Shown: positions 27,911 to 40,985 of the stretch, piece after piece
Layout of the letters: each line of letters opens with the position of its first letter
Position numbering within the stretch: position 1 is the stretch's first letter
Assembly (NCBI GenBank): GCA_049283735.1
Contig: JBAPWO010000071.1
Coordinates: 19,221 to 83,220 of the forward strand
DNA length: 64,000 nucleotides
Direction: 5' to 3'
From: Candidatus Dormiibacterota bacterium
GTDB lineage: Bacteria > Chloroflexota > Dormibacteria > Aeolococcales > Aeolococcaceae
The notes under the pieces: model-generated
The model's input: the letters and a program-made list of their open reading frames with translations, nothing else
Told to the model about the DNA's origin: nothing
The model's database searches: none
Made by a program: the position numbers and the translations under genes

Positions 27911-29161
27911 ATGCGCCGGCCGATCGCGACCCGAGCCTTTCGTTCACTCGCGGTCGACGCGCGGTCGCTGCGCGAGTCGCGACCGTTTCGCCGGCTCTGG
28001 ATCGGCCAGCTCATCTCCCTGGTCGGACGCCAGATCACCCTGGTCGCGGTGCCGTTCCAGGTGTACTCGCTGACTCGCTCCGCGCTGGATGTCGGCCTGC
28101 TGGGCATCGTCCAGGCGGTGCCGCTGATCTGCGGCTCCCTCGGCGGCGGAGCGATCGCCGACCGCTTCGACCGCCGTCGCGTTCTGATCGTGACCCAGCT
28201 CGGCCTCGCCTCGTGCTCCGGGCTGCTCGCCCTTGGGGCGTTCATCAGCAATCCCCCGCTCCTCGAGATCTACGCCGTCGTGGCGGTGGCGGCGCTGGTC
28301 GGGGCCGTCGACGCTCCGACTCGCACCGCGATCATTCCGAACCTCGTCGGCGTCGACCGGCTGGCCGGAGCGCTCTCGCTCAACATCGTGCTGTTTCAGA
28401 CCACCTTGGTTGCCGGCCCGGCGATCGGCGGGCTGGTGATCGCTCACCTGGGTCTTCCGGCAGCGTATGCCGTCGACGTGGTCACGTTCAGCGCGGCGCT
28501 CACCGCGGTTGCGCTGCTACCACCACAGGGTCGCTCGTCGTCGGAGCGTGAACGTCCGGTGGCGGCCATCGTGCGCGGCCTGAGCTTCGCGCGCCGCCAG
28601 CCGGTGATCCTCGGCGGGTTCGCGATGGATCTTGCCGCGATGATCTTCGGCCTCCCGCGCGCGGTGTTCCCGGTGCTCGCGGCGACCACGTTCCACGCCG
28701 GTCCGCAGGGTCTCGGTCTGCTCTACGCAGCCCCAGGATTGGGAGCGGTGATCGCCGCACTGGCGAGCGGGGCGGTGGCTCGGTCGAAGCGACTCGGGCG
28801 CATCATCGTGATCGCGATCGTGGCCTGGGGCCTGGTCATCATCGCCTTCGGATTCGCGCAGACGCTGTGGCTCGCGCTGCTGCTGCTCGCCGTCGCCGGT
28901 GGCGCGGACAGTCTCAGCGCGGTCTGCCGGACGACGATCATGCAAAGGATCGCTCCCGACGAACTGCGCGGCCGGCTGACCTCGCTGTACTTCATGGTGG
29001 TCGCCGGAGGTCCGTACCTCGGTGACGTCGAGACCGGCATCGTGGCGAACGCGCTCGGTGCCCAGGTTGCGATCGTGACCGGCGGAGCCCTGTGCCTCGT
29101 CGGGCTCGGCGCGGCGGCGGTCGCGTTCCCGTCGGTGTGGCGCTATCGGACCGACGCCTGA
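27911..29161 (+). CDS. MFS transporter (EntS/enterobactin-exporter-like)
   Basis: Twelve predicted TM segments; GxLaDRxGRR-type motif [14 protein letters not shown]. An alternative ATG at 27833 would add 26 aa. Confidence 0.8.
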
Positions 29162-29265
29162 CGGTTGTCGTATCGATCACATCCTTTCGCTCGGACGGCG
29201 AGGAAAAGGCGCTGTGCGCACGCGGTCCGCCCGGAGTGGGCGGCCCGTGTATCGTCCGAGGCCGC

Positions 29266-30507
29266 ATGCCAAATCCGGATCTGACCGACGTCGGCTCCAT
29301 GCCGCGCCTTGGCGAGGTCCCCGCACGGATGCACGCGCAGGTGATCCGACCCGAGCGCTACGGGGATCCTCAGACCGCGTTCGTCGTCGAATCGGTGGCG
29401 ACGCCGCGTCCGGGGCCCGGACAGGTTCTTGTCTACGTGATGGCCGCGGGCGTCAACTACAACAACGTCTGGGCCGCGCTCGGTCGACCGGTCGACGTCG
29501 TGGCCGCGCGCCGGAAGGCCGGTGAGAGCGAGGATTTCCACATCGGCGGCAGCGATGCCTCGGGCATCGTCTGGGCGGTCGGCGAGGGGGTTGACGGCGT
29601 TCGCGTCGGCGACCATGTCGTGGCCCATTGCGGGGTCTGGGACTCCGCCGACCCGTGGATAACCTCCGGCGGCGACCCGATCATCGCGCCGAGCGCGCGG
29701 ATCTGGGGGTACGAGACCAATTGGGGGAGTTTCGCCCAGTACACGCTCGTCCAGGCACACCAACTGCTCCCCAAGTCGGCACACCTGAGCTGGGCCGCAG
29801 CCGCCGCGTGCACGCTGGTCGGGGCGACCGCGTATCGCATGCTCTGCTCATGGCAGCCGCACACCGTCGCCGAGAACGACGTCGTCCTGATCTGGGGGGG
29901 CTCGGGCGGCCTCGGCTCACAGGCGATCCAGATCGCGAAGGCCAAGGGCGCGATCCCGATCGCGGTGACATCGGGTCCGGAGCGGGGCCGCTACTGCATC
30001 GACCTCGGGGCGCGCGGCTTCATCGACCGGCGCGAGTTCTCCCACTGGGGCGTGATCCCCGACTGGCGGGACGACGCGGCGTTCGCCACCTGGACCGCGG
30101 GCGCCCGAGCATTCGGCGCCGCCGTGTGGGACGTGCTGGGCGAACGCCGGAATCCGAGGATCGTTTTCGAGCACCCGGGTGAGGACACCATCCCGACATC
30201 GATCTTCGTCTGCGACAACGGCGGCATGGTGGTCATCTGCGCGGGTACGACCGGGTACCACGCGGCGGTGGATCTACGCTATCTCTGGATGCGGCAGAAG
30301 CGGCTCCAGGGCTCGCACTTCGCCAACGACAACGAGTGCGCCGAGTTCAACGCGATGGTGACCAGCGGCGAGGTCGACCCCTGCCTTTCGAGAACATTCG
30401 CGTTCGATGAGGTCGGTCTTGCGCATCAGCTGATGCGCGAGAACCGCCACCCGATGGGCAACATGTCGGTGCTGGTCGGCGCGCGCGACGCGGAGCAGCG
30501 CGACTGA
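29266..30507 (+). CDS. ccr: crotonyl-CoA carboxylase/reductase
   Basis: MPNPDLTD..., with the zinc-free MDR-superfamily fold: [28 protein letters not shown] (NADPH site), 413 aa. Confidence 0.75.
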
Positions 30508-30508
30508 T

Positions 30509-31216
30509 CTATCGCTGCGAGGCGAGGTACACGAGCGCGGCCTTGACACGACGATGCACGTCCGGCTCTTCGGAGAGGTCGAGCTTCGAGAAGATCGCGT
30601 TGATGTGCTTCTCGACCGCGCGCTCGGTGAGAAACAGCGCGGCCGCGATGCCCGCGTTGTTCTTGCCCATCGCAACCTGCTGGAGCACGTCACGCTCGCG
30701 CGGTGTGAGCTGCGCGATCGGCGAGTCGCGCACGGCGGTGCGGGCCGCGACCAGCACTTCGACGACCCGCGGGTCGATGACCGACCCACCGCGAGCCACC
30801 TCGCGGACCGCGCCGACGAGCTGATCGATGTCGGAAACGCGCTCCTTGAGCAGGTATGCTCGGCCGCTCGCGCCCTTCTCGAGCAGCGCGAGCGCGTACT
30901 CCGGCTCGGCGTACTGACTGAGCACGACAACCCCGACCTGGGGACGCTCGGCGCGAAGGCGCTCGGCGGCGCGCAGGCCCTCGTCGGTCCCGGTCGGTGG
31001 CATGCGGATATCGGTGATCACGACCGCCGGGCTATGCTCCTCGATGGCGTGCTCGAGTTCGGGAAGGTCGACGCAGGAGGCCACAAGCTCCACCTCGTCG
31101 GACGTTTCCAGAAGTTGCCGGATGCCCTCTCTGAGCAGGTAGTTGTCCTCGGCGAGGACCACGCGGATCGGCACACAGAGAGGATAGGGTGCGCCCGCGC
31201 CGGGTGCCTGCATCAC
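30509..31216 (-). CDS. NarL/FixJ (LuxR-type) response regulator
   Basis: REC domain VVLAEDNYLL...VVITDIRMPP and a C-terminal LuxR HTH LTPRERDVLQQVAMGKNNAGIAAALFLTERAVEKH. Confidence 0.85.
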   Translation of the reverse strand: MMQAPGAGAPYPLCVPIRVVLAEDNYLLREGIRQLLETSDEVELVASCVDLPELEHAIEEHSPAVVITDIRMPPTGTDEGLRAAERLRAERPQVGVVVLSQYAEPEYALALLEKGASGRAYLLKERVSDIDQLVGAVREVARGGSVIDPRVVEVLVAARTAVRDSPIAQLTPRERDVLQQVAMGKNNAGIAAALFLTERAVEKHINAIFSKLDLSEEPDVHRRVKAALVYLASQR

Positions 31217-31277
31217 CGCATCGGTGAGGCAAGTACGCTTGCCACTTCTCCGCCGCCGGGATACCGTGCGAGTTGCA

Positions 31278-31661
31278 ATGAGCGTGAGAGTGTTGATCGT
31301 CGACGATCAGGCGCCGTTTCGCGATGTCGCGCGAACCGTCGTAGAGCTGACCGACGGTTTCGAGGTGGTCGGTGAGGTCGAGACCGGCGAGGATTCGGTC
31401 ACCTCCGCCCGCGATCTTCGTCCCGACCTCGTGCTCATGGATGTGAACCTTCCGGGCATCAGCGGGCTCGACGCCACCCGCCAGATCCTCGCCGGCGTCG
31501 AGGCAACCCGGCCGGTGGTGGTGCTGGTGCTGTCGACCTATGAGGCCGACGAGTACGCGCCTCGCGCTACCGAGGCGGGGGCGGCCGGATTCATCTCCAA
31601 ATCCGACTTCAGCCCCGACCGGCTCGTCGAGGCCTGGGCCTCCGCGACCGCATCGGCATAG
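31278..31661 (+). CDS. single-domain response regulator (REC only)
   Basis: MSVRVLIVDDQAPFRDVAR...LVLMDVNLPGISGLDA; 127 aa. Confidence 0.7.
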   Translation: MSVRVLIVDDQAPFRDVARTVVELTDGFEVVGEVETGEDSVTSARDLRPDLVLMDVNLPGISGLDATRQILAGVEATRPVVVLVLSTYEADEYAPRATEAGAAGFISKSDFSPDRLVEAWASATASA

Positions 31662-31667
31662 GCGCTG

Positions 31668-33809
31668 TCAGGCGAGCACAGCCTCACGCACCGGCGCGGG
31701 AAGGTCGCCACGAACTCGAGTCCCCTCACCCGGATGCGAGATCACTTCGACAGTACCGCCGAGGGCCTCGACACGGTCGACCATGTTGGTGAGCCCTGAG
31801 CCAGGCTTCACGGTCGTGGTGTCGAACCCCGACCCGTCGTCGGCGACCTCGAAGGTCAGCAAGCCAGCGGCACCCCGGAGGCGAACCATGACGTGCAGCG
31901 CCCCGGCATATTTCTGGACGTTCTGCAGCGCTTCGAGGACACAGAAGTACACCGTCGCCTCGACGTCCTGCGGGTAGCGCTCCACGTCTTCCGCGTCGAC
32001 GGTGATTGGCGATATCGCTTTGCGCGCCTGCGACTCCAGCGCAACCACCAACCCCTTGTCGGCCAGCAGCGGTGGATAGATCCCGCGTGCGAGGTCGCGA
32101 AGCGTCTCCAGCACCTCGTCGGCGTCGGCCTTCAGCTTGGTCACGGCGGCCTTCGCCTGGTCCGGGTTCGAATCCACCAGCGACTGCGCAAGCCCGAGAT
32201 TGACCTTGAGCGCAACCAGGTGTCGCTGTGCTCCGTCGTGCAAGTTGCGTTCGAGACGGCGACGTTCCTCGTCCTGGGCCCGCACCAGCCGCTGGCGCGA
32301 GGCGAGCAGCTCGTCGAGGCGGTCTCGGAGCTCAGCAGCAAGACCCACGTTTCTCAAGACCAACCCCGCCTGGTGCGCGAGGTCGTCGATGAGCTTCTGC
32401 TCGGTGGGGCTCACCGGGTCACCCCTGCGCTTGACGATGCTGAGCGCGCCGAGCAAGCGGCCCTGATGCTCCACGGGAACTGAGGTCGTCGCGCCCGGGA
32501 TCTCGGGCAACGAGCGACTGGACATCGGTAGTGCCCCCACCAATGACGCCTCCGCGTGCGGGTACGTCGCAGCGGGGCGCAGGATCGCCGGGCCCGTCAG
32601 CCACACGGTTGCTGACTGAGCAGCGGTCGCCTCCTGGAGCACACGCGCCATGAGTGGCAATACCTCGTCCGCGGCATATGCCTCGGCGACCTGACCGGAG
32701 AAGGTGGTGAGCACCTCATATGGGGTGGCACGATTCCCGTACACGAGCCGGTTGGCAATCTTCTGCACACGCTCACGGACGGGCTGAAACCCAAGAGCGA
32801 CGATGATCGTCGCGACGATCGACAGCCAGAGATTCGGCTGGCCTCCGCTGCCAACGAGTGTGCCGATGCCGACTGCGATACCGATGTACACGGCGGTGAT
32901 GAATGCCGCTAGGACGCCATACACAAGGGTTCGGCTGATGATGATGTCGATGTCGTACAGGCGGTACTTCAGCACCGCAATTCCGATGGCGACTGGTAGC
33001 GCGACCCCAAACCCCAGGAGATTGACGAACAGCCAGGCGTCATTCGTTGCAACCGCGTCCTGGGGTGCTATCACCTGCGCGACGAGAACTGCGATGGTCG
33101 CCAACGCGGTGCACACAACGACATACGCGATCCACTTCAATTGCTCTCGTTCCTCGCCGCGGGCGCGACGCAGGCGCACGAACGGCGCTGTTGCCGCGAT
33201 GAACAGGACCGCCAGCGCGACCGCCCAAACAAGGCCAAGCGGACCCTGGACGAGCACCTCGAGACTTCTGACGCCGACCGGGTTGCGGAGCTGCGGCTGA
33301 TTCTCCGGACCCTGCAGTGGTGATGCGCCGAGCGCCTGGATCACGACCGCTACTACGAGCGTGACAACAACTGCCACAGGGATCAGGGGTCGCCATCGAC
33401 GGGAGGGGAGCCGTCCGTCCGGAATCAGTAGGAGGGTCATGCTCGCGCCCCCTGCTGGATAGACGAGTTGCTCCGACCAGACGTACCACCACAGCGCCCA
33501 TTGCGCTCCGGGCAGCCCGGGGTGCGTGATCGCAGCCAGACGGGCATATTGCGCGGACAGGCCGCCGGCACCCATGACGATCGCCATGAACAGGAAGAGC
33601 CAGCCGACCGGGTTGCGGGAGCGTTGCGAGGCGATCAGGCCGCCGACGACAGCAAACGTCAACGCCATCACGATCTCGAGCGGGTTGGCGGCGTCGAAGG
33701 CGTGAATCGAGGCGCCGTTCGCAAGCGCCAGCGCCGCACAACCGACACCGAGGGCGACGCCGAACCCGGCGATGCCCCAGGCCAGTCGCGACGCGCTTCG
33801 ATCGCTCAC
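31668..33809 (-). CDS. sensor histidine kinase (polytopic membrane N-terminus, GAF-like region, HisKA_3, HATPase_c)
   Basis: LERNLHDGAQRHLVALKVNLGLAQ (HisKA_3 H-box) plus an HATPase G-box. About 8 N-terminal TM helices. Confidence 0.85.
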   Translation of the reverse strand: MSDRSASRLAWGIAGFGVALGVGCAALALANGASIHAFDAANPLEIVMALTFAVVGGLIASQRSRNPVGWLFLFMAIVMGAGGLSAQYARLAAITHPGLPGAQWALWWYVWSEQLVYPAGGASMTLLLIPDGRLPSRRWRPLIPVAVVVTLVVAVVIQALGASPLQGPENQPQLRNPVGVRSLEVLVQGPLGLVWAVALAVLFIAATAPFVRLRRARGEEREQLKWIAYVVVCTALATIAVLVAQVIAPQDAVATNDAWLFVNLLGFGVALPVAIGIAVLKYRLYDIDIIISRTLVYGVLAAFITAVYIGIAVGIGTLVGSGGQPNLWLSIVATIIVALGFQPVRERVQKIANRLVYGNRATPYEVLTTFSGQVAEAYAADEVLPLMARVLQEATAAQSATVWLTGPAILRPAATYPHAEASLVGALPMSSRSLPEIPGATTSVPVEHQGRLLGALSIVKRRGDPVSPTEQKLIDDLAHQAGLVLRNVGLAAELRDRLDELLASRQRLVRAQDEERRRLERNLHDGAQRHLVALKVNLGLAQSLVDSNPDQAKAAVTKLKADADEVLETLRDLARGIYPPLLADKGLVVALESQARKAISPITVDAEDVERYPQDVEATVYFCVLEALQNVQKYAGALHVMVRLRGAAGLLTFEVADDGSGFDTTTVKPGSGLTNMVDRVEALGGTVEVISHPGEGTRVRGDLPAPVREAVLA

Positions 33810-35944
33810 ACTGCCGCCGCCACAATCGCCCGCACCTTGACGGGCAACGTGCCCCGAATGATCGTGCCGGTTCTCGGCTGAGAGGTCACCTCGAGAACCC
33901 CACCGAGCGCGTCCGCTCGGTCGTGCATGTTGGCCAGGCCGGCTCCCTGCTTCGCCGTCGTCGCGTCGAAGCCCCTGCCGTCGTCCCGAACGTCGAAGAT
34001 CAGCGCGTCGTCTTCGCCATGAAGGCGCACCACGACGCGGGACGCATCCGCGTATTTCTGCACGTTCTGCAACGCCTCGAGCACGCAGAAGTACACCGTG
34101 GCCTCCACGTCCTGCGTGTAGCGGCCGACGCTCTCGGCTTCGAGCGTCACCGGCACCGTCGCCTTGCGTGCCTGCGACTCCAGCGCCACCACCAAACCCT
34201 TGTCGGCAAGGAGGGGCGGATAGATGCCGCGAGCGAGATCTCGCAGCGTCTCCAGCGCCTCGTCAGCATCACCCTTGAGCTGCTCCAGGGTTGTCTTTGC
34301 CTTCTCGGCGTCTCGGGTGAGCAGCATCTCCGCAAGGCCCAGCTTCACCTTGAGCGCCACGAGGTGCTGCTGCGCACCATCATGGAGATTCCGTTCCAGG
34401 CGACGGCGTTCGAGATCCTGCGCATGCACCAACCGCTGGCGAGAGGCGCGCAGGTCGTCGAGGCGGGCCCGCAGGTCGGCACTGAGGCCGACGTTCTTGA
34501 GAACGAGTCCTGCCTGGTGGGCAAGATCATCGACGAGCTTCTCCTCGATCGGCGTCAACGCCTCCCCGCGACGCTTGGTCACGCTGAGAGCACCGAGCAG
34601 TTCCCCCTGGTGGCGCACCTCGACGGCATGCGTCGCTTCGAGGAGCGCGGGCAATGTCCCATTGCTCAGTGGCAATGAGCGGTGAGCCGCTTTGCTGTCT
34701 GGATGCGTGGCCGCTGGACGTAATTCGGTCAACCCTCGCAACCACACCGTCGCCGACTCGGATCCGGTTCCTTCCTGGAGGACACGCGCCATACGCGGCA
34801 GTACCTCATCAGCGGCATACGTCTCTGCCACGCGACCTGAGAACTCGCTGAGCACCTCGTAGGGTGTCGCGCGCTTCCCATAGACGAGTCGGTTCGCGAC
34901 CTTCTGGACGCGCTCGCGAACCGGCTGGAAGCCGATCGCAACGATCGCCGTGGCCAGGATCGACAGCGCCAGGTTGGGTTTCCCCCCACTCCCGACCAGC
35001 GTTCCGATCCCCACCGCGATGCCCACGTACGCCGCGGTGATGAACACCGCCAGCGACCCGTACACCAGCGTCCGGCTGATGACAATGTCGATGTCATAGA
35101 GCCGGTGCTTGAAGATCGCCACGCCGGCGGCGATCGGAAACAGGATGCCGAATCCGATCGCGAGGTCGGCGTTGGTGGTGGCCGTCGAAGCTGGCAGGAA
35201 CGTCAACGGGATGTACGCAACCGCTGTGACGGTGACCGCGTACGCGATCCACTTCAGCTGCTGGCGCTCGTCTCCCGCAGCCCGGCGCATGCGCACCAGC
35301 GGCGCGATCGCTGCGGCAAGGAAGAGCGCGAGGCACGGAAGCCAGAGCAGGCCGAGTGCCTGCACCGCGGCCTCGACGCCTCCGGTGACGGGAAGCCCGA
35401 CGGGGTTGTTCGGTGTCGCGAAATTGGTGTTCGTGCTCAACGGGCCCGGATAGAACATGCTGACCGGGATGAGCACAGCGGTGGCCACCACGCAGATGAC
35501 AGCGAGCGGCTTCCACCGACGGGACGGCAGATGTCCGTCGGGGAAGAGCAGCAGTACGAGCGCCACGGCGCCCGCGGGAAAGATCGCGCTGGTGACCCAG
35601 CCGTCGACCCACAATGCCCAGATCCCCGCCGGCGCCCCGGGGTGGGTCACGAAGGCAAAATGTGCATATCCATCCGCGACGCCTTGGATGCCACCCACCG
35701 CCGCGATGAAGAGGAAAAGCCAGCCGACCGGGTTCTGCCGCTGCCGCATGGCCACCAGCGCGCCGAGGATGCCGAACGTGATCGGGGTGTCGAACGCCGG
35801 CAGTTCAGCGTTGAGCAGTCCGTGAAACGACGGCGCGTTGGCGATCGCGAGCGCGATGCTTGCCGCAGCCGTCAGAAGGGCGAACACGCCCGCCGTCACC
35901 GCCAGCGCCCGAACGCCCGCGCCTCGCGACCCGGCGGCGTTCAT
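33806..35944 (-). CDS. sensor histidine kinase, tandem paralogue of 31668-33809
   Basis: LERNLHDGAQQHLVALKVKLGLAE and the same architecture as its neighbour. ATGA overlaps at both ends. Start trimmed to MNAAGSRG (35944). Confidence 0.85.
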   Translation of the reverse strand: MNAAGSRGAGVRALAVTAGVFALLTAAASIALAIANAPSFHGLLNAELPAFDTPITFGILGALVAMRQRQNPVGWLFLFIAAVGGIQGVADGYAHFAFVTHPGAPAGIWALWVDGWVTSAIFPAGAVALVLLLFPDGHLPSRRWKPLAVICVVATAVLIPVSMFYPGPLSTNTNFATPNNPVGLPVTGGVEAAVQALGLLWLPCLALFLAAAIAPLVRMRRAAGDERQQLKWIAYAVTVTAVAYIPLTFLPASTATTNADLAIGFGILFPIAAGVAIFKHRLYDIDIVISRTLVYGSLAVFITAAYVGIAVGIGTLVGSGGKPNLALSILATAIVAIGFQPVRERVQKVANRLVYGKRATPYEVLSEFSGRVAETYAADEVLPRMARVLQEGTGSESATVWLRGLTELRPAATHPDSKAAHRSLPLSNGTLPALLEATHAVEVRHQGELLGALSVTKRRGEALTPIEEKLVDDLAHQAGLVLKNVGLSADLRARLDDLRASRQRLVHAQDLERRRLERNLHDGAQQHLVALKVKLGLAEMLLTRDAEKAKTTLEQLKGDADEALETLRDLARGIYPPLLADKGLVVALESQARKATVPVTLEAESVGRYTQDVEATVYFCVLEALQNVQKYADASRVVVRLHGEDDALIFDVRDDGRGFDATTAKQGAGLANMHDRADALGGVLEVTSQPRTGTIIRGTLPVKVRAIVAAAV

Positions 35945-37257
35945 GCTGACGCCATGCCCATGCGGTACGCGCCGACCGGCGTCTGACGGCCCTTGACCAG
36001 CGCGGGCTCGATGCGTTCGGCATCGGGCTTCTCCATCAGTGCGTCGTAGGTCGGCTCGCTCAGCACCGTCTGCCCACCCTCGCCCCACTGCTGGAGGCGC
36101 TGCGCGAGGTTGACAGCGTCGCCCACCAGCGAATACTCGAGACGCTCCTCCGAGCCGAGCAGCGCAGCGGCGACATCACCGGTTGAGAGGCCGATACCGA
36201 GATGAAACGGCGGCAATCCTTCAGCCGCCCATGCTGCGTTCACCTCGTTTTGGGCATCGTGCATGGCGAGGGCCGCGGCCAGCGAACGCTCCGCATGGTC
36301 GAGTTGCGGGAACGGCGCACCGAACACCGCCATCACCGCGTCGCCAACGAACTGCATCACCGTTCCGTGCTCGGCGAGCACCGCGTGATTCATGGCGGCG
36401 CGATGCTCGTTGAGCTGGCCGGCGAGCACCGAGGGATCGGACTTCTCGGCGATCGTGGAGTACGCGCGTATGTCCGACATCAGCACCGTGACCGTGAGGC
36501 GCTCCGTCCTGCCCGGCTCGACGCCGTGCTCGCGCATCTGCTGGGCGATGCCACCGGGCAGCATCCTGCTCAGGCTCTCGCCCTGCTCCTCGCGATCGAT
36601 GATCACCTTGTGCAGGAGACGCAGCCGCTCGAGCGCGCCCTGGGTTCCGGCACTCGCCTGCTGCGCGAGCTTGAGGAAGAGCTGCTCCACATCGTCGGCA
36701 ACCGATGCCGGCGTGGAGTGCAGCGACGCGGCGATCGCCTTGATCGGTTTGCCCTCGGCAACCATGCGCAGCAGTCGCTCCTCGACCCCGGTTAAGCCAC
36801 CGGCGTCGCTCACCGGCCTGGTGAGCGCGTCGACGATGCGAGGGTCGAGCATCGATCCCCCGGTGCTGACCTCACGGACGGCTCGAGCCAGTTGATCGCC
36901 CTCCGCAACCCGATCCTTGAGCAGGTACGCGTACCCGGCGGCTCCCTCGCTGAGCAGCGAGATCGCGTACTCGGGTTCGTCGTACTGGGAAAGGATCACG
37001 ATCCCCGTCCCGGGATGCTGCTTGCGGACGATCCGCGCGGCGCGAATGCCTTCGTCGGTGAAGTCGGGGGGCATGCGGATATCGGTCACCACCACCTGGG
37101 GCAGGTGCTCGGCCGCTCCGGCCAGGAGCTCGTTGTAGTCACCCGCCACCCCGACGACCTCAACGTCTCCCGAGATGGCGAGCAGCGCGCGCACGCCTTC
37201 GCGGACTATCAGGTTGTCGTCGGCGAGCACGACGCGAATCGACTGCTCCAACGCCAT
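35941..37257 (-). CDS. response regulator with REC, LuxR-type HTH and class III adenylate/guanylate cyclase domains
   Basis: REC IRVVLADDNLIVREG...VVVTDIRMPP; HTH EERLLRMVAEGKPIKAIAASLHST; cyclase core TVLMSDIRAYSTIAEK...FVGDAVMAVFGAP...GIGLSTGDVAA. Confidence 0.8.
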   Translation of the reverse strand: MALEQSIRVVLADDNLIVREGVRALLAISGDVEVVGVAGDYNELLAGAAEHLPQVVVTDIRMPPDFTDEGIRAARIVRKQHPGTGIVILSQYDEPEYAISLLSEGAAGYAYLLKDRVAEGDQLARAVREVSTGGSMLDPRIVDALTRPVSDAGGLTGVEERLLRMVAEGKPIKAIAASLHSTPASVADDVEQLFLKLAQQASAGTQGALERLRLLHKVIIDREEQGESLSRMLPGGIAQQMREHGVEPGRTERLTVTVLMSDIRAYSTIAEKSDPSVLAGQLNEHRAAMNHAVLAEHGTVMQFVGDAVMAVFGAPFPQLDHAERSLAAALAMHDAQNEVNAAWAAEGLPPFHLGIGLSTGDVAAALLGSEERLEYSLVGDAVNLAQRLQQWGEGGQTVLSEPTYDALMEKPDAERIEPALVKGRQTPVGAYRMGMASA

Positions 37258-37401
37258 CGCTCAACTGTAGTCAGCGCAGCGCACTGCGAAAGGGGGCTGC
37301 CACCACGTTCTCAGGGGGTGACCATCACCCCCGACTTGTGGTCCGGGCACCCTCGACCACCCGCATCGGGAGCGCGATGATCCGCGCCACGGAGGTACGT
37401 C

Positions 37402-38403
37402 ATGCGCATCGAATCGTCGGTCACATCAATCTCGTGGATTCCATCCGAGGCCGTCCAGGGGCTCACCAAGGTCCCATTCGAGATGGGCCTGGCGCACTAC
37501 GACGATCCGCCGCCGGATCACGTCGATTCGCTCGCAGCGCTCCAGGAGGCGGATCGGTTTCGGTTCGCCAATCATCTGAGCGCGTGGATCGAGGTCGACG
37601 GGGGCCGGATCGTCGACCGCGGTCAGGCGGGCGGCGGGCAGATCGGCTCGACGACCATCAGACTGGGAGGCCGCGGCATGACCTTCGCGGCGGTGGCGTT
37701 CCCGGACAAGCGCCCGGTACCCGTCGCCGGCGACGGTTGGGTTCGGTTCACCCAGACCGCCGGCGGACGCACCGGGGTCCCGGCGCCTCGCAAGGTCAAT
37801 CGACCCCCCTTCATCCAGCTCGCGGCACCGCTCGCGTGGACGAGCCTGACGCTGACGCTCTTCTCCGACGGGAGGTCGCTGCACGAGCTCACCGGCGCCA
37901 GTCCGTTCCCGCGCCACTGGGTCTACGACCACGATCGGAATCTCGCTCAGAAATCGGGTTTGGTGGACTTCAAGCGCTGGTATCAGCACGCGTTCGGGAC
38001 GCACACGCCCTGGGGCGACGAGGACTCGCCGGCGCTGGTCACCGAGGTCGAGACGGCGTTGGAGCGCGAGCTCTCGCAGCGCATCATGCGCAGTGGCCTG
38101 AAACCTCGCATCCAGCAGATCAAGGCGGGCGCGACCCTCGTGGAGCAGGGCGATGAGGGGCGCGATATGTATGTGCTGCTCGACGGCGTGCTCACGGTCG
38201 AGGTTGACGGCGAGGCGGTGGCGCAGCTCGGACCGGGCGCGGTGGTCGGCGAGCGGGCGTTGCTCGAGGGTGGCCGGCGAACCGCCACCCTCCGCGCGGT
38301 CACGCCGTCGAAGGTCGCCGCCGCGTCAGGCGCCGAGCTGTCTCCCGAAATGCTCAGTGAGCTGGCTGCCGGGCATCGCCGGGAAGGGGCGCAGCCTGGC
38401 TGA
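37402..38403 (+). CDS. protein with unknown N-terminal domain and C-terminal cyclic-nucleotide-binding domain
   Basis: C-terminal 110 aa IKAGATLVEQGDEGRDMYVLLDGVLTVE...LGPGAVVGERALLEGGRRTATLRA (CAP_ED). Transcribed divergently from the cyclase regulator. Confidence 0.75.
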   Translation: MRIESSVTSISWIPSEAVQGLTKVPFEMGLAHYDDPPPDHVDSLAALQEADRFRFANHLSAWIEVDGGRIVDRGQAGGGQIGSTTIRLGGRGMTFAAVAFPDKRPVPVAGDGWVRFTQTAGGRTGVPAPRKVNRPPFIQLAAPLAWTSLTLTLFSDGRSLHELTGASPFPRHWVYDHDRNLAQKSGLVDFKRWYQHAFGTHTPWGDEDSPALVTEVETALERELSQRIMRSGLKPRIQQIKAGATLVEQGDEGRDMYVLLDGVLTVEVDGEAVAQLGPGAVVGERALLEGGRRTATLRAVTPSKVAAASGAELSPEMLSELAAGHRREGAQPG

Positions 38404-39199
38404 TCGCAGCACGGACTCGATCCAGGGCGACCTCCGGCGGCAAGGTGGCGAGCTCCACCCGCCGGCCGCTCAGCAGCCAGTCGATCTCGGCGCCGTCCAA
38501 GAGCATGCTGAGGTCGCGGGGAAGGCGCGCCGGGGCACCTTCGATGACCTGATGCGAAGCCCCGGCGACCTCTCGAGGGCGCAGTCCGCCATCCACGACC
38601 TCAACACCCGAATCGCGGAGATCCTGGACGAGCGCCACGCCGCGCGGCGACGCGTCGTGGAGCACGACCACCCGGGTGCCGGGTCCGGGCATCCCGTCCT
38701 GGCTCGCAGGGATCACCCTGACCGAGCCAAGCTCCGCTCGCTCGGCGTTCGCGGCGATCATCGCCGCGGTATCCGGCGTGTCGCTGACGATCGTGACCGG
38801 CGCTGCGGCGCTCTGCGCCGAGGCGGGACCGGTATCGGGCGAGATCAACCCTTCCAGGCGAAGGGGCCCGAAGCGGCTGCGGAATTCGTCAAATGAGACG
38901 GCGAGAAGCCGCCCGGTCAAGTTCGGACGCCGCATCCGCCCGAGGATTCCGGCAAGCACGAGAGCCACTCCGAGGGTCACGAACAGCGCGAAGACGACCC
39001 TGACGGCGATGAAGGTCAGTCCCACCAGGATCAGCAGCACACCGAGGCCGATCTCGCCGTTGGATGCCGCGTCCGAGGATCCGATTTCGGCGCGGGCGCA
39101 CGTGGCGTAGTACAGCTGCCGCTGCGTATATCGCCAACCACCGGCGGCAAGCCCGGCCGCCGAGTCCTCGACGAGCGACGTGGTCACCGGAAGCGCCAT
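38354..39199 (-). CDS. hypothetical membrane protein
   Basis: MALPVTTSLVED... with 2-3 TM helices (IGLGVLLILVGLTFIAVRVVFALFVTLGVALVLAGIL). Start trimmed to 39199. Confidence 0.4.
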   Translation of the reverse strand: MALPVTTSLVEDSAAGLAAGGWRYTQRQLYYATCARAEIGSSDAASNGEIGLGVLLILVGLTFIAVRVVFALFVTLGVALVLAGILGRMRRPNLTGRLLAVSFDEFRSRFGPLRLEGLISPDTGPASAQSAAAPVTIVSDTPDTAAMIAANAERAELGSVRVIPASQDGMPGPGTRVVVLHDASPRGVALVQDLRDSGVEVVDGGLRPREVAGASHQVIEGAPARLPRDLSMLLDGAEIDWLLSGRRVELATLPPEVALDRVRAAISQAAPLPGDARQPAH

Positions 39200-39275
39200 C
39201 GCGCGGAGTGTGGCACAGGTTCCGGACGCCTGCGGACGAGTTCGCGAGCTCGCGACACAGCGATATGCTGCGGCC

Positions 39276-40985
39276 ATGGCCACCGAGCGGGATGATGCCG
39301 CGTCCGTCACGGTGGAGGAAGGAGAACCGGACTTCATCGAGGCACTCCTCGACTGGCAGGACAAGGTTCTCGAGCCGGCTCGGACGCGCGGCGAGCGAAA
39401 GGACCGCTTCGAGACCGGGAGCGGCATCCCGGTGACCCCGCTCTACACCGAAGCCGACCTCACGAGCCACGATCCGCTTCGCGACGAGGGATTTCCGGGA
39501 GTGCCGCCGTTCACGCGCGGCATTCAACCGACGATGTATCGAGGTCGCCTCTGGAGCATCCGCCAGTACGCGGGATATGGAACCGCCGGAGACGCCAACG
39601 CGCGGTTCCGCTACCTGCTCGCCCAGGGCCAACCCGGACTGTCCGTGGCGTTCGACCTCCCGACCCAGATGGGGCTGGACAGCGACGATCCCCGCAGCCT
39701 GGGCGAGGTGGGGCAGGTCGGCGTCGCCATCGACTCGGTGCGCGACATGGAGGATCTCTTCGAAGGCATTCCGCTCAGCGCAGTGAGCACCTCGATGACC
39801 ATCAACGCACCGGCGCCGGTGCTCGTGGCGATGTATGTCGTCGCCGCCGAGCGCCAGGGCCTCGACGCCGCCGCGGTCATGGGGACGGTCCAGAACGACG
39901 TGCTCAAGGAGTACATCGCTCGGGGCACCTTCATCTATCCGCCACGGCCGTCGTTGCGACTCGCGGCCGATCTGATCGTCTGGTGCACCCAGAGCGCACC
40001 GAAGTTCAATCCGATCTCGCTTTCCGGCTACCACATCCGCGAAGCGGGGAGCACCGCCGCGCAGGAGATGGCGTTTGCCCTGGCAAATGCGTGCGCCTAT
40101 GTGCAGGCGTCGGTCGATCGCGGGGCCGGTGTTGACGACTTCGCGCCCAAGCTCTCCTGGATCTTCAACACCCACATCGACTTTTTCGAGGAGATCGCAA
40201 AGTACCGAGCGCTGCGGCGGATGTGGTCGCGCATCATGGCCCACCGCTTCGGCGCACGTGATCCACGGTCCCTGATGCTCCGAACCCACACGCAGACGGG
40301 TGGTTCGACGCTGACCGCGCAGCAGCCGGAGAACAACATCGTGCGTGCCGCCATCGAGGCACTCGCCGCGGTGCTCGGCGGCGTCCAGTCTCTCGCGCTG
40401 TCGTGCTACGACGAGGCGCTCTCGATTCCGACGGAGAAGGCGCAGCGCATCGCGGTGCGGACGCAGCAGATCATCGCCGAGGAGACCGCGGTCACCAACA
40501 CCGTCGACCCATTGGGCGGCTCGTACTACGTCGAGTGGCTCACCGACGAGCTCGAACGCGAGGCGATCCGGCTCCTCGACGAGATCGACAGCCTCGGCGG
40601 CGCCGTGGCGTGCATCGAGTCCGGCTGGATGCAGCAGCACATCCAGGACGAGGCATACCGCACCGAGCGGGCGATCGCCGCCGGCGAAAAGGTGATCGTC
40701 GGCGTCAACCGCTACACCGAGACCGAGGAGGGCGGGGCGCCACTGCTCTTCCGGCCCGACGAACGGGCGATGGCCGAACAGGCCGCGCGCCTGGCCCGGC
40801 ATCGCGCCCAGCGCCATCCGGCAGCTGTCGAAGCGGCGCTCGGTGCGGTCAAGCGGGCGGCCACCTCCGACGACGCGCTGATGCCCCGCATCCTCGACGC
40901 GGTGCGAGCGGAGGCGACCCTCGGGGAGATCTGCGGCACCCTCAGATCCGTGTTCGGCGACTACCAGCCGCCGGCCACGATCTGA
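39276..40985 (+). CDS. methylmalonyl-CoA mutase-family large (catalytic) subunit, no B12-binding domain
   Basis: GFPGVPPFTRGIQPTMYRGRLWSIRQYAGYGTA...AFDLPTQMGLDSD, the MCM/ICM catalytic TIM barrel. 569 aa, ending before a cobalamin-binding domain. Confidence 0.8.
   Translation: MATERDDAASVTVEEGEPDFIEALLDWQDKVLEPARTRGERKDRFETGSGIPVTPLYTEADLTSHDPLRDEGFPGVPPFTRGIQPTMYRGRLWSIRQYAGYGTAGDANARFRYLLAQGQPGLSVAFDLPTQMGLDSDDPRSLGEVGQVGVAIDSVRDMEDLFEGIPLSAVSTSMTINAPAPVLVAMYVVAAERQGLDAAAVMGTVQNDVLKEYIARGTFIYPPRPSLRLAADLIVWCTQSAPKFNPISLSGYHIREAGSTAAQEMAFALANACAYVQASVDRGAGVDDFAPKLSWIFNTHIDFFEEIAKYRALRRMWSRIMAHRFGARDPRSLMLRTHTQTGGSTLTAQQPENNIVRAAIEALAAVLGGVQSLALSCYDEALSIPTEKAQRIAVRTQQIIAEETAVTNTVDPLGGSYYVEWLTDELEREAIRLLDEIDSLGGAVACIESGWMQQHIQDEAYRTERAIAAGEKVIVGVNRYTETEEGGAPLLFRPDERAMAEQAARLARHRAQRHPAAVEAALGAVKRAATSDDALMPRILDAVRAEATLGEICGTLRSVFGDYQPPATI

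Follow-up and report, generated by a model that had tools for sequence, protein, structure and literature searches.

The DNA analysed here, hereafter the window, is a stretch of 64,000 nucleotides from a Candidatus Dormiibacterota bacterium (assembly GCA_049283735.1, contig JBAPWO010000071.1, positions 19,221 to 83,220), with a GC content of about 67%. Open reading frame (ORF) and Pfam calls placed six genes in a signalling cluster, among them a 438-aa protein in which a receiver domain (REC), a remnant of a LuxR-type helix-turn-helix (HTH) and a class III nucleotidyl cyclase are joined. The cluster probably encodes a branched two-component system leading to phosphorylation-dependent synthesis of a cyclic nucleotide monophosphate (cNMP), which is predicted to be read by a dedicated receptor. 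Two parts of this prediction, namely that the cyclase is under two-component control and that its product is read by the neighbouring protein, are well supported by comparative genomics. The genes, and the spacer between the two divergent ones, are as follows.

30509..31216, minus strand: NarL/LuxR-type response regulator, 235 aa (Pfam Response_reg 61 bits, intact GerE HTH 50.5 bits)
31278..31661, plus strand: stand-alone REC-only receiver, about 127 aa (Pfam Response_reg 81.5 bits)
31668..33809, minus strand: histidine kinase 1, GTG start at 33809; polytopic region, weak GAF-like segment, HisKA_3, HATPase_c
33806..35944, minus strand: histidine kinase 2, paralogue of kinase 1, ATG start at 35944; HisKA_3 and HATPase_c
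35941..37257, minus strand: fusion of REC, vestigial LuxR-type HTH, helical linker and class III cyclase, 438 aa
37258..37401: divergent intergenic region of 144 bp between the fusion and the cNMP-binding gene
37402..38403, plus strand: cNMP-binding protein, 333 aa; sole recognised domain Pfam cNMP_binding, residues 238-313

A first-pass annotation, made by reading the sequence, had placed the fusion, kinase 2 and kinase 1 on the minus strand from 37257 to 31668, and our calls agree with it; every peptide string that it quoted was found in the translations. It had also reported ATGA overlaps at both junctions. The fusion/kinase 2 junction is indeed ATGA (35944-35941), but kinase 2 and kinase 1 overlap by GTGA, the latter gene starting with GTG at 33809. 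Its statement that the REC-only protein and the second LuxR regulator flank the kinases has to be corrected, for both sit on one side of the kinases and the REC-only gene is on the plus strand.

The fusion was found to be widespread. A search of 5.8 billion proteins gave 120 clusters at 73-97% identity to it, from JGI, ENA and NCBI assemblies and nearly all of 433-443 aa, and JGI had already given many of them the automatic name 'class 3 adenylate cyclase/DNA-binding NarL/FixJ family response regulator'. The domain order REC-HTH-cyclase had been called unusual in the earlier annotation, yet hundreds of protein clusters carry this architecture. When one genome per GTDB species was searched, 80 full-length matches at 65-92% identity were obtained, which belonged to Dormibacterota and also to metagenome-assembled genomes (MAGs) of Acidimicrobiia, Microthrixaceae and Nitriliruptorales. 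On plasmids of cultured bacteria, the closest full-length matches were generic REC-cyclases of 27% identity, and close relatives of the fusion were not found. We also considered whether the fusion could be an assembly or frameshift artefact joining separate response regulator and cyclase genes, which the first-pass annotation had named as a point to be checked. Nothing was found in favour of this explanation. The gene is a continuous 438-aa ORF, it has more than 200 independent homologues of the same length in Dormibacterota and Acidimicrobiia MAGs, and the 120 clusters, the 80 species genomes and the 140 loci with a full-length fusion gene exclude an artefact with near certainty. Copies from Dormibacterota and Actinomycetota were 65-72% identical, which is high for two phyla. 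Furthermore, three loci labelled Kiloniellales, Gammaproteobacteria and Acidobacteriota (L055, L057 and L075) held fusions 65-66% identical to that of the window, like the Acidimicrobiia copies, and represent either binning contamination or horizontal transfer.

The fusion is divided into four parts, given here with the residues on which the argument turns.

36883..37239, minus strand: receiver domain, aa 7-125; conserved D13/D14, phospho-acceptor D59 (37081-37083), S90 and K114
36658..36795, minus strand: vestigial LuxR-type HTH, aa 155-200; GerE sub-threshold, placed by a per-position profile and by alignment to the neighbouring regulator
36508..36657, minus strand: helical linker into the cyclase, aa 201-250, conserved (...RLLHKxIxDREEQGESLSRMLP...), placed by AlphaFold2 (AF2) and Foldseek
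35959..36507, minus strand: class III (IIIb-like) nucleotidyl cyclase, aa 251-433; metal D262 and D306; transition-state N383 and R387; substrate Q302 (36352-36354) and S376 (36130-36132)

The cyclase domain matched Pfam PF00211 (Guanylate_cyc) with 83 bits over residues 255-426, well above the cut-off of 21.9, and so bears out the class III assignment made at first reading. Its closest solved relatives are of class IIIb type: Cya2 2w01 (E 1.5e-28), CyaB 3r5g and CyaC 1wc0 (E 1e-19, TM-score about 0.8). For comparison among genomes, we pooled loci found by scanning genomes and metagenomes and by looking up contigs, and we defined as the Gln clade those whose fusion is at least 60% identical to that of the window. 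The first-pass annotation had asked whether the catalytic Asp/Asn/Arg residues might be missing; D262, D306, N383 and R387 are invariant in the family alignment and occur in 100 of 100 clade loci. From these intact metal and transition-state residues, the cyclase is predicted to be active, as are its nearest homologues of solved structure, Cya2, CyaC and CyaB.

The nature of its product is another matter. Adenylyl cyclases conserve the pair Lys-Asp, or Lys-Thr in class IIIb, whereas guanylyl cyclases have Glu at the first specificity position and Cys, Ser, Thr, Gly or others at the second (PMC4215837). The specificity motif reads MQFVGD in the window, with Gln302, compared with KFVGD in CyaB and EFMGD in Cya2. 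The ATP-specific combination of Lys with Asp or Thr is therefore replaced by Gln302 and Ser376, and the first position also departs from that of guanylyl cyclases (Gln, not Glu), with the second (Ser/Thr) compatible. Because the Gln-Ser/Thr pocket fits neither the adenylyl nor the guanylyl rule, the product is not predictable, and the label 'adenylate/guanylate' given to the domain earlier is not borne out as written, the specifying Lys being Gln302. The pocket itself is strongly conserved. Gln occupies position 302 in 99 of the 100 clade members (Gln-Ser in 38, Gln-Thr in 61, Met-Thr in one; the window has Q302/S376), and all 120 metagenomic clusters have Gln with Ser or Thr.

It could be argued that such a pocket marks a cyclase that is dead or only regulatory, in which Lys was lost and the protein works as a phospho-sink or scaffold. 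The replacement of the adenylyl-cyclase Lys by Gln302, and of Asp by Ser/Thr, would fit this explanation under the rule just cited (PMC4215837). However, invariant metal Asp, Asn and Arg residues together with an almost invariant Gln point to selection on a working pocket, and a dedicated partner with a cyclic-nucleotide-binding (CNB) domain co-occurs with exactly the Gln clade, as described below. Moreover, Rv0386 of Mycobacterium tuberculosis, which has a Gln-Asn pair, works as an adenylyl cyclase and has a guanylyl side activity. We hold a dead cyclase to be quite improbable.

An active cyclase with a Gln pocket can be set against a sister clade with the canonical one. Only about four full-length clusters were obtained at the 50% level in a profile search of 1.84 billion representatives. 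Two of these, P0250 and P0254 (43-46% identity), have the identical layout of REC, vestigial HTH and cyclase with a canonical Lys-Thr pocket. The Lys-Thr clade, less than 50% identical to the window fusion, is abundant and occurs in Actinomycetota MAGs. The neighbours of the pooled loci, classed by tblastn with the six window proteins, separated the two clades. A homologue of the cNMP-binding gene lay near the fusion in 79 of the 91 Gln-clade loci with enough upstream sequence and was immediately divergent in 59; among the 52 immediately divergent loci first measured, the spacer was 130-260 bp in almost all. A NarL regulator was the divergent neighbour in none of the 91. In the Lys clade, by contrast, the cNMP-binding gene was absent from all 26 loci and the divergent neighbour was a NarL regulator in all 26. 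The Gln pocket and the dedicated receptor thus appear, from these comparisons, to have arrived together. Of the 47 Gln-clade loci that extend 6 kb or more to either side, 44 had the cNMP-binding gene, 42 at least one HisKA_3 kinase, 42 the REC-only gene and 40 a NarL-type regulator, and nearly all the sampled loci of Dormibacterota and Acidimicrobiia carry the module. The Lys clade has, besides the regulator, HisKA_3 kinases of 700 aa in tandem; the core of kinase, regulator and REC-cyclase is therefore older.

The Lys clade is not uniform. One Glu-Thr member, which is guanylyl-cyclase-like, and two Gln-Thr members were seen among L115, L120 and L121, so the first specificity position is evolutionarily labile in the superfamily. 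No cNMP-binding neighbour was detected in these three loci; the divergent NarL regulator was present in L120 and L121, and the upstream sequence of L115 was too short to tell. In addition, a Usp + ABC1/UbiB-type kinase gene recurs beside Lys-Thr fusions (L085-L088).

About 13% of the Gln-clade loci have no cNMP-binding gene within 8 kb, and the same organisms encode other Gln-type cyclases. On these grounds, the neighbour might not be the receptor of this cyclase at all, its adjacency reflecting shared regulation or a response to the global cAMP pool. However, the divergent adjacency of the two genes was kept across two phyla at 50-85% protein identity and is missing beside the Lys-type sister clade, and we consider this alternative improbable.

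The putative receptor has the same sequence (100% identity) as a protein of an NCBI 'Candidatus Dormiibacterota' MAG. As had been noted at first reading, its only recognisable domain is a C-terminal CAP_ED: the CNB domain spans residues 233-320 approximately (PF00027, 59.9 bits against a cut-off of 27.5). Its phosphate-binding cassette GERALLEGGRRTATLRA is intact (pattern GE..AL......R[ST]A), with G283, E284, R293, T294 and A295 invariant, and its best sequence matches are the PKG and PKA regulatory domains. The RTAT cassette motif occurs in both cGMP- and cAMP-preferring domains, and we drew no conclusion on nucleotide specificity from it. No HTH match was obtained in the 333 aa, the chain ending about 13 residues past the CNB C-helix, and a Kyte-Doolittle scan gave no transmembrane (TM) segment; the protein is therefore neither a CRP-type factor nor a channel. 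The AF2 model (predicted local distance difference test, pLDDT, 66; strand blocks above 90) shows about 12 beta strands over residues 1-185, helices at 190-228 and the CNB barrel. Residues 1-232 matched nothing in Pfam or NCBIfam (E<=10), in the PDB by phmmer or by a 12-sequence profile (E<=10), or in PLSDB plasmids by tblastn, and Foldseek of the full AF2 model against the PDB returned only CNB-domain matches among the 50 best. The N-terminal domain contains many invariant His, Asp, Arg and Trp positions, including those in SWIPSEA, HYD, GGRTG and FPRHW, which fits an enzyme or a specific binding module.

A cyclase gene adjoining a gene that combines CNB with another domain is also the gene layout of Pycsar, and the PADLOC models PycC and PycTIR matched the cyclase and CNB domains. 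However, these matches were at the level of domains, with scores similar to those of generic Pfam models. The candidate effector, of which only the CNB part resembles the PycTIR models, has neither the TIR nor the TM killing domain of Pycsar effectors, and the cyclase is gated by a receiver domain. Furthermore, the locus is conserved in most genomes of two lineages and has housekeeping flanks, a core-genome-like distribution that is unlike sporadic defence islands. A Pycsar-like anti-phage system is thus very improbable.

The other half of the prediction concerns the route by which the cyclase is controlled. The receiver of the fusion (PF00072, 53.7 bits) has the phosphorylation residues D13, D14, D59, S90 and K114, all invariant in the family alignments. 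The segment behind it is derived from a NarL-type regulator. The NCBIfam models MctR, MadR and NarL span residues 7-204; DevR 3c3w (over residues 7-205), VraR and NarL align end to end; and the fusion shares 51% identity with the neighbouring NarL-type regulator over residues 7-197, through the recognition helix. The first-pass annotation had described an internal LuxR-type HTH. Its homology to NarL-type regulators is confirmed by these alignments, but Pfam GerE gave only 14.3 bits (E 0.032), below the cut-off of 23.5, matches were weak in all of the 12 of 18 family members that had one, and the DNA-contacting residues are lost. In 85 sequences the hydrophobic core was conserved (L162, L163, V166, A167, G169, I172, I175, A176, V186, V190, L193, F194 and L197). 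Positions 187-189 and 192 of the recognition helix are A/D/D/Q in the window fusion, which has D/D/E where the neighbouring regulator has K/H/N; in the 85 sequences, D, A, E and S predominate at positions 187-189, and Q, A, K and R all occur at position 192. The fusion therefore differs from NarL/FixJ regulators proper, as it has no threshold-passing GerE HTH with basic or polar DNA contacts on the recognition helix. The domain is best described as a vestige that keeps the fold, with acidic or neutral residues at the DNA-contact positions, and probably does not bind DNA.

The AF2 model of the fusion (pLDDT 71) has helices at 157-167, 172-178 and 183-202, followed by 208-224, which leads into the cyclase via the strongly conserved segment REEQGESLSRMLP; residues 237-243 are also helical. 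In Foldseek, the helical stretch and the catalytic core matched the linker and cyclase of the phytochrome-Cya2 chimera 6fht, including about 55 residues N-terminal of the core. From this we infer that the former DNA-binding domain is now a mechanical link, possibly an autoinhibitory latch, between receiver and cyclase.

In the divergent intergenic DNA, a Shine-Dalgarno sequence, GGAGGT, stands 6 nt before the ATG of the cNMP-binding gene in the window and in close relatives. On the other side, TACAGT ends 6 nt upstream of the fusion ATG in the window and in eight related loci, which suggests a leaderless mRNA for the operon of fusion and kinases. Conserved spacer blocks among close relatives are GGTCGAGGGTGC and GTGGTGGCWGCCCCATTTCG. 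A perfect 8+3+8 palindrome, GGGGGTGA-CCA-TCACCCCC, lies at 37314-37332 and is partly conserved in the closest loci, and GTGGTG(GC) occurs in 32 of 56 homologous spacers, with clusters around -49 and -106 relative to the start of the fusion (window site at 37293-37306). A promoter and terminator consensus scan of 30400-38500 gave nothing above shuffled expectation, as expected at this GC content. The palindrome and the GTGGTG motifs are candidates for operator sites, and the intact NarL-type regulator is their most plausible binder.

It is conceivable that the fusion is bifunctional, its internal HTH still binding DNA such as the palindrome in its own promoter while the cyclase acts additionally. 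The conserved tetra-helical core, the weak GerE recognition of 12 of 18 members and the presence of the palindrome and the recurrent GTGGTG in the divergent promoter region would agree with it. However, the K/H/N to D/D/E change at the recognition helix, the sub-threshold GerE score and the continuation of the equivalent of the last HTH helix into the cyclase linker all speak for a lost function, and the intact regulator of the same cluster is the likelier binder of those motifs. We regard a bifunctional fusion as quite improbable, too.

The two kinases are clear paralogues, as had been recognised before, with 61% identity over 667 aa. HisKA_3 (PF07730) gave 51 and 58 bits, HATPase_c (PF02518) 36 and 43 bits, and the H-box is LHDGAQ in both. 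About eight TM helices had been assigned to each; a crude Kyte-Doolittle scan showed about 9-10 hydrophobic segments in each of the two, and the other four proteins had none. The first-pass annotation had also spoken of a phospho-relay. No Hpt domain was found in the cluster, so it is a branched two-component system and not a multi-step His-Asp-His-Asp phosphorelay. Across the 47 long-flank loci, the kinase copy number ranged from 0 to 4 with a mode of 1, and the tandem pair of the window thus stems from a duplication, specific to its lineage, of an element that varies between loci.

The sensor region of the kinases was met again in another protein family. In the representative search, membrane-anchored cyclases of about 600 aa (P0270, P0280, P0296, P0310, P0316, P0333 and others) shared the Gln-Ser/Thr catalytic domain, and their N-terminal polytopic and GAF-like region aligned with the sensor region of kinases 1 and 2. 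Loop motifs common to both are PDGRLPSRRW and RRAxxERxQLKW. The hmmsearch E-value was 1e-11, obtained with a six-sequence database and under a strong TM composition bias. The strongest pairwise score (kinase 2 against P0381, blastp E 7e-16) ties the kinases to a Lys-type membrane cyclase, because P0381 carries Lys-Thr, not Gln. These similarities suggest that one sensor acts on this type of cyclase by two routes, one direct and one via kinase and receiver, and that the route from kinase to REC to cyclase is a two-component version of a one-component design.

Taken together, the pathway may be pictured as follows. The two polytopic HisKA_3 kinases, whose domains are observed, would sense a cue, probably membrane-associated, and autophosphorylate. 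The phosphate would then pass to up to three NarL-type receivers, namely those of the DNA-binding regulator, the REC-only protein and the fusion, and the stand-alone REC may compete with the others or act as a sink for phosphate. If NarL-family activation and helix-coupled class III cyclases are taken as models, dimerisation or rearrangement of the phosphorylated REC would be passed through the vestigial HTH and the linker, thereby assembling or activating the homodimeric class III site. The cyclase, with Gln-Ser/Thr in place of the adenine-specifying Lys-Asp/Thr, might produce cAMP, cGMP or a mixture. The receptor gene is observed to co-occur; its CNB domain would bind the product, and binding would control the N-terminal beta domain, which would be the actual output.

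Several points weigh against this pathway. The N-terminal all-beta output domain of the receptor, without a known family, is the main gap in the model. The association of the neighbours with the Gln or Lys clade is strong by Fisher's test (p = 4e-17), but it comes essentially from one phylogenetic split, and its independence is overstated. An adjacent kinase was lacking in 5 of the 47 long-flank loci, and the specificity of the kinases for their REC partners is not readable from sequence. The change from Lys to Gln could lower or abolish cyclase activity. In addition, both AF2 models are of modest confidence (pLDDT 71 for the fusion and 66 for the receptor), and the geometry of REC, HTH and cyclase that they give is tentative.

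A more far-reaching version of the pathway is that the Gln-Ser/Thr cyclases of Dormibacterota and Acidimicrobiia, receiver-gated and membrane-anchored alike, produce not plain cAMP but cGMP or another cNMP as messenger and form a private channel with a dedicated receptor family, whose N-terminal beta domain would be a new type of effector under cNMP control, the HTH being reused as an autoinhibitory latch or transducer from receiver to cyclase. At present we consider it rather unlikely as a whole.

The remaining features concern the layout of the locus. The REC-only gene is convergent with kinase 1, their stops being 6 bp apart, and divergent from the NarL-type regulator. For the REC-only gene, ATG at 31278 was favoured over GTG at 31224, where the ORF opens, because homologues are of 125-127 aa; the start codon of the regulator is uncertain (GTG 31216 or ATG 31213). 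The divergent starts of these two genes are about 60 bp apart (31217-31277), a gap short enough to imply promoters that overlap or are leaderless. On one side of the cluster lies a crotonyl-CoA carboxylase/reductase gene (29092-30507; TIGR01751, 556 bits) and on the other an acyl-CoA mutase large-subunit gene (39180-40985). Both are the same in L002 (ENA contig_34274, 1.06 Mb), the closest long contig, and the cluster therefore sits between ethylmalonyl-CoA-pathway-like genes. A 357-aa ORF on the minus strand (38354-39427), for which no family was matched, shares 50 nt with the 3' end of the cNMP-binding gene; a gene call of 286 aa stands at the equivalent place in L002, and the ORF may or may not be a real gene. 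In L002 the second kinase is split into two gene calls and the cNMP-binding gene gave only a partial tblastn match, which look like indel errors of long-read assembly, not biology.

Compared with known systems, the cluster is a variant built of known signalling parts and not a new kind of system. No paper was found in the literature on this fusion family, on signalling in Dormibacterota or on Gln-type cyclases beyond Rv0386. A close parallel in control is cyanobacterial CyaC of Spirulina and Anabaena, a class IIIb adenylyl cyclase for which regulation by phosphotransfer to the receiver domain has been described (Kasahara & Ohmori 1999, cited in PMC1183210). Both have a class IIIb-type catalytic domain (1wc0) under a two-component receiver. 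However, CyaC is a hybrid with its own kinase and GAF and a Lys-Thr pocket, whereas the cluster has separate polytopic kinases, a NarL-type receiver followed by a vestigial HTH, and the Gln-Ser/Thr pocket. NarL, DevR and VraR resemble the fusion end to end over residues 7-205 and have partners of HisKA_3 type like its kinases; they differ in that its HTH is sub-threshold and without basic DNA contacts, with a cyclase appended. Cya2 of Synechocystis (2w01), a guanylyl cyclase with a Glu-Gly pocket (PMC4215837), is the best solved homologue of the catalytic domain, and the engineered phytochrome-Cya2 6fht also covers the linker, but its pocket and its input domain are different. Rv0386 is likewise a class III cyclase without the canonical Lys, joined to a LuxR-type module. 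However, its domain order is reversed (cyclase-ATPase-LuxR HTH), it has no receiver, its C-terminal LuxR HTH is bona fide, and there is no close sequence relationship. An alternative mechanism of substrate binding has been noted for it (PMC3466318). In the REC-GGDEF proteins PleD and WspR, a receiver also gates synthesis of a nucleotide second messenger, and WspR 3bre was among the fold matches; their output is c-di-GMP, their linker is another one and there is no vestigial HTH. The features that distinguish the cluster are the vestigial HTH as linker, the conserved Gln-type pocket and the co-evolving receptor with an uncharacterised output domain.

Receiver-gated class III cyclases are known, although few have been studied, and the fusion would be a case from nature in which a DNA-binding output domain has become a transducer of signals within its own molecule. 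It also represents a large, strongly conserved cyclase clade with Gln at the position that separates ATP from GTP specificity, evolutionarily coupled to the gain of a dedicated cNMP receptor. The cluster would gain in interest should its product be something other than cAMP. Synthetic signalling could draw on it for new parts, namely a cyclase gated by phosphorylation and an orthogonal receptor. Dormibacterota and Acidimicrobiia are lineages that abound in soil, are for the most part uncultured and have hardly been studied for their signalling. Once worked out, the nucleotide and the output of the receptor would define a major regulatory pathway in these lineages.

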